Below, piece after piece: positions 7,167 to 61,879 of a DNA stretch of 64,000 nucleotides; within the stretch, counting starts at the first letter, position 1; every line of letters begins with the position of its first letter. The notes beneath the pieces were generated by a model, which saw only the letters and a program-made list of their open reading frames with translations, was not told the origin of the DNA and did not search any database. Made by a program: the position numbers and the translations under genes. The stretch comes from Eledone cirrhosa (Eukaryota). The stretch is taken from contig OZ024753.1 of the NCBI GenBank assembly GCA_964016885.1, forward strand, positions 31,682,001-31,746,000. The letters are read 5' to 3'.

Positions 7167-7787
7167 TTGAGTTTATGTTGGTTGTATACCAACACCTCAG
7201 TATGCAGGCTGGAGCACTCGACGAAGTGCGCAGGTTGGTTTGGTTACTCCGGAGTAGTGTAAAATAAAGTTAAATAAAAGTCAAATGATTAAAATTTAGC
7301 TTCGTTTATTACTGCTATATATATTTCAGTGACAGCCATCTTTGGCTGTGACCTCTTCAGGCAGTTTGAATTAGTATGGTATAGACAAGTACATATGTTA
7401 TTTAGGTGTATGATATTGTCAATACTCTGATATGCCCAGTTCCTTGTTGGGTTGTTAATTCACTGGGGAACTGGAGTCATATGAATTCAAACAAACGAAT
7501 TTTCGTGTCACAGGTCCCCTTCTCCTCTCATTGGTCAGTTATTAGAACATTCCTCATTCTAAGTGTTGTTATCCAGTTCCCCAGTGAATTAACAACCCAA
7601 CAAGGAACTGGGCATATCAGAGTATTGACAATATCATACACCTAAATAACATATGTACTTGTCTATACCATACTAATTCAAACTGCCTGAAGAGGTCACA
7701 GCCAAAGATGGCTGTCACTGAAATATATATAGCAGTAATAAACGAAACTAAATTTTAATCATTTGACTTTTATTTAACTTTATTTTA
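7167..7787 (-). mobile_element. Fold-back PLE-like element, family G
   Basis: About 215-bp near-perfect inverted arms (7261-7475 / 7572-7787), ~95-bp spacer, ~95-bp unpaired tail 7167-7260, flanked by microsatellite. Homologous to 46881-47279. Confidence 0.8.
7682..7736 (+). ncRNA. Minimal type I hammerhead ribozyme (mirror copy 7311-7365, -)
   Basis: actgc-CTGAAGA-ggtcacagccaaagatggctgtcact-GAAA-tatata-TA-gcagt. Stems I and II pair and stem III is palindromic. AATAAA follows. Confidence 0.85.
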
Positions 7788-8620
7788 TATATATATATAT
7801 ATATATATATATATATATATATATATATATACAGGTTTGAAGGTTCACCACTGGATAGAGCTGGTCAATTCCGTTTGGTCAATCGTAATGTAATAATATG
7901 GAGAGAACTCAACGTAAAGCAGTTCAATATCACCGGATTCATACGGAACCCGGTCATTGAAATGATCATAGTATAATAAACCTTTCAAGGATTTACACAA
8001 GTCCAGCCTCCTGTTATTTTATTATATTATATATATATATATATATCACTAGTTGTATCATTATCCGTCCTTGTACCTAGCTTACCATTAAATATATCTC
8101 CAGAATGAATCTATAACAGTATTTCGGTTCATCTTTCAATGATGCCATTTAAATATATTAGTTTTCTGCGGATTTATAATCATTATTTCTTCCCCTTTTT
8201 ATCTATTTATATTTCACGTATTTATCGAGTTATGTAACTTGCAGACTTTCTGCCCGTATTTCTATTTCAACTGTCGTCTAGCCGTCTATCTAGATAGACA
8301 TCTCAATAAATTTCAAAAGCTGCGACATTGCTAAGTAATTATTATATTGATGGCATTAGTTTAATTTCAGAGACGTTTTGAGAAATATCAGATATTAGAC
8401 GGAAGATGAAAGTTACTTTAAACCTACGAGATGTTATAAATAGGACCAATACGATGATATTTCTCCTCCTATTATTTCATTATTGAATACATCTGATCAG
8501 ACTAAGAGGGACCGAGATTACATGAGCACACACCGTTTCTTTTGATCAAATCAATTAAAAGAAACTAAAAACTAATTTTCATATTGATACATTATATATC
8601 TTACTACATAATATTATTTT

Positions 8621-8812
8621 AGGGCGGTGGATTGGCAGTATCAGTAGAGAGTCGGACGCCATACTTTGCAGCAAAGAGTTACGGCCCTTTATGGTCTGAT
8701 TTCAAATCCCGCCAAGGTTAACTTTACCTTTCATCCTTACGGGGTCGATAAAATAAAGTACCAGTAATACACTGGATAATTGCTGGCCTTGTGCCAAAAG
8801 TAGAAACAATTA
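8621..8812 (+). mobile_element. tRNA-derived SINE, family 1 (Meta/MESC-like core)
   Basis: A-box-like ggattggcagt, B-box-like (g)ttcaaatccc, core cctttcatccttacggggtcgataaaataaagtaccag. More than 15 copies in the window. Confidence 0.85.
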
Positions 8813-58264: not shown

Positions 58265-58453
58265 AGGGCGGTGGATTGGTAGTATCGGTAGAGAGTCGGA
58301 CGCCATGCTGTCCAGCATAGTTACGTCCCTTTACGATCTGAGTTCAAATCCCGCCGAGGTTGACTTTGCCTTTCATCCTTACGGGGTCGCTAAAATAAAG
58401 TACCAGTAAGACACTGGGTAATTGCTGGCCTTGTGCCTAAAGTAGAAACAATT
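58265..58453 (+). mobile_element. SINE family 1, full length
   Basis: Consensus match. Flanking direct repeat attattatcatgtatgta..taagggc. Confidence 0.9.
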
Positions 58454-61390
58454 ATTATCATGTATGTATAAGGGCCATACCAACCACTTGCTTTTCATGT
58501 CTGTCGTCTTTGAGACCTCTGATGTCCTCGGTTCCTGGACTGCCGTTTTTCTCCCCAAAATCGGAAGGAATGAATACCTCCTGCAACAAGAATTTCTGTG
58601 AAGTAGAATGACTGATACCGTGGGTGTCGCTGACTCTTTTTGCGACAATACTTTCACCATCTTGTTCTTGGTGTCCAAATAAAATATATTGTCTAGCCAA
58701 AGGTGTCGAGTTTGCACCCTCCAATCCCTTTTCTCGTTATTTTTTTCTGATTTCCTCTTTATTATCTTAATCAGTACCAGTAATGTACTGGATAATTGCT
58801 GGCCTTGTGCCAAAAGTAGAAACAATTATTTTAATCATTTTTACAAGTATTTTCATCATAGTATATCCACATGTATTCTGACATGCGGTTCTCTCTGCTT
58901 TGCAGTAATCCTTCTGACTCTCTTGAGCTCGAATCCTGTCCAGGTCAACATTGTCTTTCATCGTTTCGTTGTCGATAAAAAAAAAATTACCTGTACAGTT
59001 CTGGGTCGTTTCTTTCTCTATGTCTCTTCTCTATATTTCTTTCTCACTATTTCTCTCTCTCTCTCTCTCTCTCTCTCTCTCTCTCTCTCTCTCTCTCTCT
59101 CTCTCCCCTGGTAGAAATCAGCTGTGTTCATACCTGGAAAGGGGATGGGCTCCGACACATCGCACATCATGATCGTGGCGCCAAACCAACTCCATCAGAA
59201 GGTGCCGACCCGTACACATACATAGTTATCTAACCACCTATCCCCTTATACCTAAATTACTCTATGTACATATCAACTATATCGATTTTTTTTTTTTGTA
59301 AACTGCTGTCAATGTTCTACTATTCGACTCTCTCTCTCTTGGTCCTCTCCTCTCGTTCCCTCTCTCGCTCTCATAATGCTCTCTTTCACTTTCTCCTCCT
59401 CTCTCTTCTTTGTGTATCCTTCGATCCCTCATCTCCTCTCTTTTATTTTTCTCTCTCTCTCTCTCTCTCTCTCTCTCTCTCTCTCTCTCCCTCTCTCCTC
59501 TTATCTCTCTTTCCCCCTTTCTGTTAGCCTTCTTATACCTCTCTCCCTCTGTTAGCCTTATTGTATCTCTATCACCCTCCTTCCTCTCTCTACCCTCCTT
59601 CACCTCCTTACTCTCCCCCTCCCTCTCTCTACCCTCCTCCACCTCCCTACTCTCCCTCCTCCTTCTCTATCTATCTCTATATAGCCCCTTACTATATCTT
59701 TATCACTCTATTTCTCTCCTGTATGTCAGTAATAACAAATTTCCCATAACCATTCAGATCTCTTGCTATTTTATCAAATATAATTCATATAATAAAATCA
59801 GTGACATCGTTTTTTGACAACACATGCGCGCACGTGTGTGTGTGTGTGTGATAATTTGTGTATGAGTGTGCACGTAAATAAGCTTGCAAATGGAGATTTT
59901 TACCTAACTCCTTAAATTTTTTTCTGTATCTTTTCTCTTTAATATCTGGAGCGCTGTTTTCTAAAAATATATTCATGTCTCTAACTAATTAGTTTTACTA
60001 CCACCACCATCACTCTACACAAACAAACAAAAAACAATATTCCATAAAAACATATAAAACATATATAATAAATACCATACAAAAAAAAATGAGATTCATT
60101 TATTCTCAATGGGTTGAATATCTTATGTTATATTTCAAAGATTTTTATTGTATTCTTTGTCAAAAAAAAATCAATAATTATGACACATATTTCCTGGTAG
60201 AAGACACCCTCCATCGCCACTTACCCATCTATCCTTCAACATTTCCTACTTCAATATATTCCTTCCTCGGGATCGTCGACTTTTAATGTGGATCAGTAAT
60301 GTGTTGGTGTATTGCATAATCTATTAGATAACTTTTCAGATTTTTTTTTCACAATTTCTTTCAAATGTCCTTACACTCGAGAAATTATTCGAGCTTGAAG
60401 CATCTTATGGCCATCGGTATCTTATTTTCTTTTTGTGTGTTGTTTGTACATATATATGTAGTTCACTGGGTTTTGTTCTGTTGGTTGTTTGTGTATTTGT
60501 TTCGTTCTTATGAGCAATGTATTAAAGAATTGTTTTATTATAAGATATATTTTATTGCATGCTATGCCGTGGGGAATATTCCAAACACATGCCATATAAT
60601 GTTTTTGTGGTGTGTTTGTGTGTTTATGCACATATATATATATGTAAATACATATACCCACATATATATATATATGTATGTATATGTGTTTATGTTTGAG
60701 TGTGTGTTTATGCATATATATATTGTGTGTGTGTGTGTGAAATAGAATTATATTTATGCATGCATATATATATATATATTGTGTGTGTGTGAAATAATAT
60801 TAAACTCCGTCCTCTTCGACGATGAGTATTCGAATTGTTCGATCAATGGAGAACCTGCCGATGAAATTGTGTAGTTTCTATATAATATTATTCGGCAGTT
60901 ACTGCCACCCCATTTTATAATTGGCATGGAACACACACATAACCAATACAAACCTTAAGTTCAGCCAGCGACCTGAACGCCTTTCAAACCTGATCCGGTA
61001 CACAAACACGCACCAATTCTAACCCTACGATCAACCACCAGAACTGAAACTCAGCCGAGGCCCTGTAATTACCATCAATCAGCCCGAAACCTTTACCTAC
61101 TTAACGAACCAACAAGCCCGAGTAGGAAAGAGCGAATCCATAAGGCCAGTCAATAAATATTCACATGAATACGACCGCAAGCCTCAGGAAACAACTGATC
61201 ATAAACACTACAGATACGAGCAATTAAATACGAGCTGAAACAATAAACATTTTCGTAATAAAGCACGTTATCTTAACACCAACACAGAACAAACGAAACT
61301 ACTGAGCAACAACTGCCATTTGATAGTTAGAAATATATATATATATATGTTTTATATATATATATATATATATATATATATATATATATA

Positions 61391-61879
61391 CGGGGTAACA
61401 GATTATTGTTATAGGTAGTCCACTTAAGTGTCGTCCAGTTATGGTACTCCGGGTAGTGGATGATATCAACGCTTGGCTAAGTTTGACTCAACAAGACGTT
61501 TCCATAGTGATGTTGCGAGTACGCTGTAATTCCTATGTTGTAAACACTTGGAGTAATGATAAATCAGGAAAGAAGAGTGACACGGTTTGCGATACAAAAA
61601 AGGTTTTTAATCTCATTGCTGACAATTGTTTCTCTGAACTGGTAGGTCTAGAGATCGCTACCCGCTTGTTTTCACGTTATTCGATCACCAATACAAAGTT
61701 ATAACCAGTCAATTCATCCGATGAATTGACTGCTTATAACTTTGTATTGGTGATCGAATAACGTGAAAACAAGCGGGTAGCGATCTCTAGACCTACCAGT
61801 TCAGAGAAACAATTGTCAGCATTGAGATTAAAAACCTTTTTTGTATAGCAAACCGTGTCACTATTCTTTCCTGATTTAT
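61391..61879 (-). mobile_element. Fold-back element with ~160-bp arms and a ~170-bp tail
   Basis: Palindrome 61559-61879 centred at 61719, (TA)n on both sides. The arm reads cCGATGA...GAAA-caattg-TC-agcatt, a hammerhead truncated at its 5' core. Confidence 0.8.

Follow-up and report, generated by a model that had tools for sequence, protein, structure and literature searches.

Fold-back inserts with hammerhead motifs in (TA)n tracts of Eledone cirrhosa: truncated Penelope-like elements with two fixed ends and a possible twin-priming origin

Inserts and hammerhead motifs at the locus

We analyzed 64,000 nt of Eledone cirrhosa DNA (GCA_964016885.1, contig OZ024753.1, positions 31,682,001 to 31,746,000 of the forward strand; hereafter the window), in which short inserts combine (TA)n borders, inverted arms and hammerhead ribozyme motifs. 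The window has a GC content of 34% and abundant (TA)n runs. An initial annotation had listed 11 such inserts, which it read as truncated or non-autonomous Penelope-like elements (PLEs). Comparison of the window with itself and reading of the sequence showed all 11 in place, each bounded by (TA)n and each with an inverted arm pair (Table 1). Most have the one-sided tail that had been described, at a length of 64-170 nt rather than 70-170 bp. They sort, as proposed, into seven families (A to G), but these are not unrelated, the proteins of six among them showing relationship. Additional inserts beyond the 11 belong to families H and K and to a composite, I; family K, absent from the earlier list, has at least 40 copies at 98-100% identity.

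Using a type I descriptor (stem I of at least 4 bp, CUGANGA, stem II, GAAA, helix III, UH), we detected 10 strict motifs in the window compared to 0.175 ± 0.42 (maximum 2) in 200 local dinucleotide shuffles, which confirms the predicted excess over shuffled sequence. The description of the hammerheads as paired was only partly borne out. We found two cores in five inserts only (7167, 11799, 12229, 18453 and 44806), and at 18453 one alone passes the strict descriptor; the other six inserts carry a single, partial or altered motif (Table 1). In family K no canonical core was found, just a degenerate 3′ half. An Rfam scan of the window (E ≤ 1) gave 289 matches, and hammerhead is absent among the 150 listed; all of these are microRNA models and fall on simple repeats.

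Table 1. Inserts in the window, with clade labels based on protein motifs and the start given by the initial annotation where it listed the insert
Feature	Position	Strand	Listed start	Details
Family A fold-back, Hydra-type PLE	7167..7787	-	7167	Tail 7167-7259, tail arm to 7572, inner arm 7572-7787; hammerheads 7316-7360 (-), 7687-7731 (+)
Family B fold-back, CCHH Neptune-like PLE	11745..12184	-	11799	Tail to ~11800, center ~11995; hammerheads 11924-11952 (-), 12036-12064 (+); cleavage triplet ending UU
Family C fold-back, Hydra-type	12229..12646	-	12229	Tail 12229-12310, tail arm to 12455, longer inner arm 12456-12646; hammerheads 12367-12415 (-), 12542-12590 (+)
Family E fold-back, Hydra-type	12661..12826	-	12661	Arms hardly overlap; hammerhead 3′ half only
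Family H insert, Neptune-like	16130..16325	-	not listed	190-nt inner arm and ~13-nt inverted tail-end piece; zero overlap between arms
Older family C fold-back	18453..18839	-	18453	Hammerhead 18732-18781 (+), second core 18604-18645 (-)
Family G, Hydra-type, 5′-truncated copy	39439..40296	-	39430	GIY-YIG frame end from 40240, 3′ untranslated region, hammerhead, tail; single complete motif 39518-39621 with 85-nt stem II; palindrome 40235-40296 with arms of just 31 bp
Family H small fold-back and tail	41282..41425	+	not listed	
Family D fold-back, Hydra-type	44806..45009	+	44806	Center ~44870, tail to 45009; hammerheads 44827-44865 (-), 44876-44914 (+)
Family I, older composite fold-back	45922..46631	.		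E-like tail sequence at each end
Family E fold-back	46648..46854	-	46650	Center is loop II of hammerhead; 3′ half only
Older family A copy, ~78% to young A	46878..47277	+	46881	Short inverted arm; hammerhead has lost GAAA
Family K, Neptune-like	52786..55019	-	not listed	Young 2.2-kb fold-back, ~40-nt tail, contains ORF end
Family E fold-back	57068..57257	+	57069	Perfect palindromic center in loop II; 80-nt tail; hammerhead 3′ half only
Family F fold-back, Hydra-type	61389..61879	-	61391	170-nt tail; center at hammerhead core (CCGATGA), where the insert is cut

Inserts of different families are stacked within one (TA)n tract, three or four consecutively, at 11709-12842 and 45853-47317. More short PLE-like pieces lie next to TA tracts at 6948-7122 and 16375-16422 (an old E-like tail and a second, unassigned family).

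Family identity and abundance

Each family was traced through the genome, the best 40 candidates per search being scored. All seven families A to G continue 5′ in genome copies into an open reading frame (ORF) with reverse transcriptase (RT) followed by a C-terminal GIY-YIG nuclease; the 5′ extension that the initial annotation had named as a check on a PLE origin thus reached the ORF in 7/7. Because the families run into these frames, we regard the inserts as the 3′ ends of ordinary autonomous PLEs. Family A has at least 40 copies at 99-100% identity over 406 nt, and its long copies hold an 856-aa open frame, RT then GIY-YIG. RT and GIY-YIG were also read in open or broken frames of B (L101/L250), C (L290), D (pieces in L248/L249), E (L210, L212, L214, L254), F (L049/L253), G, H (L011/L251) and K. 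At locus L290, two pseudo-long terminal repeats (pLTRs) with a spacing of 3,980 nt form a pLTR-tail-ORF-pLTR unit of family C, and at L020/L063 the tail is followed by an ATG. The view of D and C as ORF-less was dropped once 8-9-kb stretches were read and ORFs appeared; an RNA of family C that is non-autonomous and has a fixed 5′ terminus is ruled out by the long copies and the full-length element. Of "truncated or non-autonomous", the first term holds and the second is not needed, as autonomous-type long copies exist for all seven families.

The short inverted-repeat form and the TA flanks are also what would be expected of miniature inverted-repeat transposable elements (MITEs) or fold-back DNA transposons with terminal inverted repeats. 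We consider this explanation extremely improbable: tails are one-sided, centers vary, 5′ truncation is nested and RT plus GIY-YIG ORFs occur in seven families. The ORF links refute it, and symmetrical terminal repeats, a fixed center or absence of RT were not found. Such inserts should be filed as PLE fragments and not under MITEs or simple repeats, the labels that standard annotation had been expected to give them.

A Pfam search with the 856-aa protein of family A (E ≤ 0.1) found no family. Its domains were assigned from motifs in the translation; 23 homologues were found, the one named being from Argonauta hians. The clade calls of all nine families are likewise motif-based. According to these motifs, A, C, D, E, F and G are Hydra-type. 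They resemble the Hydra clade, including Hydra-1_Obim, as described in PMC8557442: C-terminal GIY-YIG, RWK/DKT, CxCX5C linker, CxxC plus CxH, no CCHH, a pLTR hammerhead, (TA)n targets, an inverted 5′-truncated copy and a one-sided tail. RWK and DKT are present in the RT N-terminus of A and G, and one copy of C has MWR with DKT; the copies of D, E and F that were fetched end short of this region. The CxCX5C linker was seen in A, C, E, F and G (that of D lies outside the fetched copies) and CxxC plus CxH in A, D, E, F and G, and CCHH is absent as far as the copies cover. Insertion into (TA)n and the hammerhead are also present, with a core of CUGAGAA or UUGANAA in E and mostly CCGAUGA in F. Size differs: the clade is given as generally <3 kb with tails of 30-40 nt (PMC8557442), and here the units of C (3,980 nt) and A (~4 kb) are longer, through long untranslated regions (UTRs) and low-complexity inserts, and tails measure 64-170 nt. 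Unlike the clade as published, six families share one window, with an estimated tens of thousands of copies each. The listed Hydra-1_oBim hammerhead (PMC8557442) does not match those of our families, as compared by eye only.

Families B, H and K are Neptune-like by their CX2-5CxxC-type linker and C-terminal nuclease of CCHH type, motifs that are intact in K and carry a substitution or frameshift in the B and H copies read. The linker and nuclease, the YLDD of RT (B and K) and the microsatellite targets agree with the Neptune clade as described in PMC8557442, from which K differs in that the canonical hammerhead core was not found in it. By motif, the inserts thus represent at least nine PLE families, six Hydra-type and three Neptune-like. 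For the composite I, an ORF was not found in 10 loci.

We then assessed abundance in a blind sample of 80 stretches of 10 kb (800 kb) at round coordinates of the 3.0-Gb assembly; 52 of them come from the four largest contigs, which contain 54% of the bases. The sample holds 66 strict hammerhead motifs, spread over 34/80 stretches, versus 2.6 in 20 shuffles. This gives an estimate of ~240,000 intact motifs per genome (bootstrap 160,000-320,000). Helix III, which is outside the descriptor in this respect, is a perfect palindrome in 35/66 motifs (5.3 expected), and (TA)n follows within 260 nt in 59/66 (background 27%). Only 17-19 of the 66 lie within fold-backs or opposite-strand pairs, the majority being solo. 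The blind census counted 43 small fold-backs, that is, one per 18.6 kb or ~160,000 per genome. (TA)n adjoins 31/43 compared to a background of 12%, so the targeting of (TA)n, including enrichment at the junctions, is confirmed. The density of one per 5 kb suggested for the window applies there (10 fold-backs in 64 kb in the same census), but not to the genome, with one per ~19 kb. Family E is among the most abundant, with an estimated ~60,000 inserts. Hydra-type coding sequence occupies ~16.8 kb of the 800 kb (2%) in 11/80 stretches, and Neptune-like 2.3 kb in 3 stretches.

The very large hidden ribozyme population of the initial annotation is therefore real as a motif count, although activity within fold-backs is predicted to be low. 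Published counts are 126,247 for axolotl and >6,000 for coral (PMC7229834), and ~9,000 for Xenopus tropicalis (PMC4209133). Our estimate exceeds these, and is about 25 times that of X. tropicalis, in a rough comparison as the descriptors differ.

The blind sample (L124-L203) contains far more hammerhead families than the window shows. One separate family has a U3-A8 core (UUGAUAA), a 59-nt stem II and a palindromic helix III (L145, L176, L197; 4 per 800 kb). The remaining U3-A8 matches in the sample resemble chance or tandem repeat.

Fold-back anatomy and its possible origin

We mapped 126 fold-backs of families A to F against natural long copies after removing duplicates from the segmental copy of the window and overlapping loci; many of the 126 had been fetched with tail-containing queries. 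The pattern seen in 111/126 pairs an arm that stops at the tail end with one that stops at an inner site whose position depends on the family (A -93, B -64, C -83, D about -76, E -80, F -170). Only 3/126 are two-tailed. The element's own sequence has TA at 6/6 inner sites and at 3/3 tail ends with a visible continuation (A, C, G). In A and C, the sequence beyond the tail end is 5′ UTR running to the ATG, so priming would be internal on the RNA.

Arms of one insert also share alleles. We counted 455 concordant and 20 discordant diagnostic sites in 99 inserts, where random pairing predicts ~214 discordant ones; D has no diagnostic sites, and misaligned and equal-ended pairs were excluded. Arms were nearer to each other than to the arms of other inserts in 107/118. 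These observed patterns point to two priming sites and a single source.

A comparable arrangement is known for PAc, the Poseidon element of Anolis carolinensis. In vitro, both target strands are cut and extended, RT starts internally at two sites, one on each side of the tail, and the ribozyme is not needed for insertion (PMC11167929). Because the 111/126 pattern matches these two RT starts and the cleavage of two strands, two-site priming is supported. Both systems have an AT-rich target; unlike in PAc as reported there, the two sites here serve opposite ends of one insertion with TA at both joints, and in A and C the tail belongs to the 5′ UTR ahead of the ATG.

We favor, with moderate confidence, the reading that the inserts are truncated copies of autonomous PLEs in (TA)n, twin-primed from one RNA and with run-off on the leader. 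The GIY-YIG nuclease would cut both strands of (TA)n, and both cut ends would prime RT on RNA of one source element, the tail end serving one of them and the inner site the other, with 2-6 nt of TA pairing. The two cDNAs would then be joined head to head through short microhomology. Priming on the 5′ leader would run off at a predicted RNA polymerase II start inside the pLTR and yield the abundant 130-350-nt copies, and priming on the downstream unit would yield long copies. The template RNA was apparently uncleaved, with hammerheads carried along passively. In LINE-1 twin priming, the RNA is primed at an internal position by the second target strand, which leaves an inverted 5′ segment with a microhomology joint. 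The model differs in that the second priming site is fixed and near the first, so that the arms duplicate each other.

Self-priming, in which the cDNA or an antisense template folds back to make the inverted arm and later central deletions create the asymmetry, would equally give alleles common to both arms and the numerous perfect or near-perfect palindromic centers. Palindromic inverted junctions are described in PLEs, and self-priming has been put forward for those of rotifers (PMC3846280). A snapped-back arm cannot exceed its template, yet among 37 fold-backs obtained as by-catch the tail-less arm is longer in 15 and the tail arm in 7, with 15 equal. In two copies of family A the excess of the tail-less arm is 849 and 1258 nt, and some arm pairs do not overlap (window 16130; L258, L270). 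Self-priming also leaves the fixed inner end with its TA joint unexplained. Because the tail-less arm is often longer and some arms do not overlap, we find snap-back fairly unlikely.

We are less sure of the leader run-off step of twin priming, which we infer from sequence patterns at the 5′ ends. Arms fetched by their own family's query were left out of the pile-up counts for E, D and B. In family E, 57/66 arms at risk start within 27 nt, compared to 5/71 in the preceding 27 nt and 3/9 in the next 27 nt; 48 of these 57 pass into an inverted arm and none (0/57) continues upstream. The starts fall within 10 nt for 13/15 arms in D and within 22 nt for 6/7 in B. In family C, counted by eye, 13/30 loci stop at one base and 16 continue into the UTR. 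A TATAWA lies 30-33 nt upstream of the pile-up edge in B, D and F, a placement with a chance of 6.7% per family (3/5 families, P=0.003). The edge has an initiator-like TCATTY in E and F; B, E and F also show CCAAT boxes ahead of it. Starts at the predicted cleavage site (±1), read by eye, are rare: 1/79 arms in E, 0/43 in C, 0/20 in D and one insert in B. Short copies do not include the upstream promoter motifs and would be dead on arrival.

Family H (L011, L251) also has a pile-up, with 8/33 by-catch arms starting between -271 and -253, directly after GCGCATGCGC and before AAAATGGCG. We take these two sequences to resemble the NRF1 and YY1 promoter elements, and the pile-up may resemble a TATA-less counterpart of those in the other families. 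Six A starts at -200, probably cross-matches to H, were left out.

Twin priming may also hold with the 5′ pile-ups being RT stalls or microhomology hot spots at the ribozyme structure. In D, E and F the pile-ups do fall within the hammerhead or immediately 5′ to it, and in B and D they coincide with short palindromes. An RT moving 3′ to 5′ should, however, halt at the 3′ foot of the structure, yet it would have traversed the entire motif before reaching the ends seen in B, C and D; the sharp upper edge and the promoter-like motifs at the expected distance are a further difficulty. We judge stalling quite unlikely.

Several observations count against twin priming with leader run-off. The pile-up windows were drawn after inspecting the data. 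By-catch starts in C are dispersed from -274 to -219, a pile-up of 5′ ends was not seen in A, and that of F derives solely from loci fetched with a query beginning there. An exact TATA box is absent from C and E, and the Penelope of D. virilis has an internal promoter without TATA (PMC2377424). Priming by PAc is reported as non-homologous to the target (PMC11167929), unlike the TA joints here. Gene conversion could yield the concordance of arms, the 15 versus 7 split in arm length does not differ significantly from 50:50 (P=0.13), and deletions at the center following insertion could obscure the twin-priming and snap-back models alike. In family B, the two-tailed inserts (7/25 in a larger set) depart from a simple twin-priming picture, one identical center recurs in about 19 of 25 pairs, and next to it there is always a one-base mismatch between the arms, G versus T (once C), G/G being found in 0/25.

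Some short fold-backs, B being the best case, would instead be non-autonomous: the entire unit would be transcribed, and the autonomous protein would re-insert it with the center kept. The G/T difference of B (window 11985-12005 and 24 other loci) spans at least 6 mirrored haplotypes in either orientation relative to the tail, and centers recur in D too. On the other hand, all other diagnostic sites are mirrored between the arms of the 25 pairs, each haplotype appearing in both arms, and arm-specific changes recur in two loci at most. Centers vary from copy to copy in A, C, E and F, and the upstream promoter-like motifs are absent from short copies. Head-to-tail arrays of short units were not noticed in the loci read, where no systematic search was made. 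We regard such units as very unlikely overall and retain this route for family B because of its recurring center and fixed G/T difference. A cap-derived extra G at the B center was considered and is not established, as long copies bear both alleles.

The ribozyme is predicted to be sequestered because the antisense arm precedes the sense motif in a transcript of either strand. In predicted folds of five inserts, the core has P(paired)=1.00 in both directions, so a hammerhead in a fold-back would be locked in duplex whichever strand is transcribed. Folds of single ribozymes gave z from -3.05 to +0.19, family A alone being clearly below shuffles. In family E, the core is CUGAGAA in 21/29 long arms and U3-A8 in others, and short copies start within loop II. 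These core variants and starts suggest that cleavage is dispensable for spread. Among long E copies (L205-L222 versus L017, L067, L093, L117), the covarying U3-A8 pair of diverged copies has become an unpaired C3-A8 in the most-sampled subfamily, which still spread.

Elsewhere in the window, an RTE-type LINE (long interspersed nuclear element) fragment (~17950-18430, minus strand) is split by the TA tract that houses the 18453 insert. A tandem array at 1554-2198 repeats a 77-nt unit ~8 times at 98% similarity, and a 28-nt inverted match borders it on each side. No host exon was recognized among the long frames in the window. An inverted duplicate of the window lies ~0.4 Mb away (OZ024753.1, ~32.09-32.14 Mb) with 99-100% identity and the same inserts; either the segment was duplicated recently or a haplotype was left uncollapsed.

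Known systems and meaning

The fold-back layout itself is already published for PLEs: earlier work on PLEs and on the Hydra clade, including one family of Octopus bimaculoides, reports truncated copies in inverted orientation along with tails, (TA)n targets and hammerheads (PMC8557442). The motifs also agree with the minimal hammerheads of metazoan PLEs in being type I, with a palindromic helix III and a U3-A8 core variant; those are reported to occur mostly singly or in pairs on opposite strands, 100-700 bp apart, which are ascribed to truncated PLEs, and to have low activity as monomers (PMC4209133). Non-LTR retrozymes are likewise short, non-coding and PLE-related, with a type I hammerhead, but are described as head-to-tail arrays yielding circles (PMC7229834; bioRxiv 10.64898/2026.07.22.740005), whereas the inserts here are truncated coding elements, either solo or paired head to head. 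Head-to-tail units of 170-400 nt with no coding parent were considered and rejected for the loci read, where the units are solo or head to head and run on into ORFs.

In the open-access literature, hammerhead, octopus and Penelope together led to PMC8557442 as the only relevant source, and we found no statement that PLEs use twin priming or leader run-off. A repeat paper on O. vulgaris describes active Penelope families, and the word "hammerhead" is absent from its main text (PMC13282606). The origin of the tandem or inverted ends and tails of PLEs is called open in PMC8557442, and it is just partly answered in vitro by PMC11167929. What is new here is the scale of the motif population and the population anatomy of the fold-backs.

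The formation of PLE ends becomes directly testable with families that are young, high in copy number and close to intact in their ORFs, and that offer thousands of independent junctions. The copies predict start sites and priming sites to the single base; counted from the tail end of the reference copies, the predicted starts are B -262, C -275, D -141, E -145 and F -345. The shift in the family E core offers a natural test of the importance of cleavage. The motif count would alter the view of how frequent self-cleaving motifs are in animal DNA, and the head-to-head geometry predicts inactive duplexes for the motifs in fold-backs. One hairpin of 80-500 bp per ~19 kb is a large potential source of double-stranded RNA. 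Coleoids show extensive adenosine-to-inosine editing.

We tentatively propose, short of endorsing it, that the ~160,000 small fold-backs are twin-primed leader cDNAs within the largest hammerhead population yet counted, mostly a Hydra-clade explosion. If this is true, the genome records how PLEs build inverted pLTRs and one-sided tails, PLE promoters could be mapped without RNA data, and the ribozyme would be silent on the template. Long perfect hairpins would have been seeded in the genome, and these would be ADAR and Dicer substrates.

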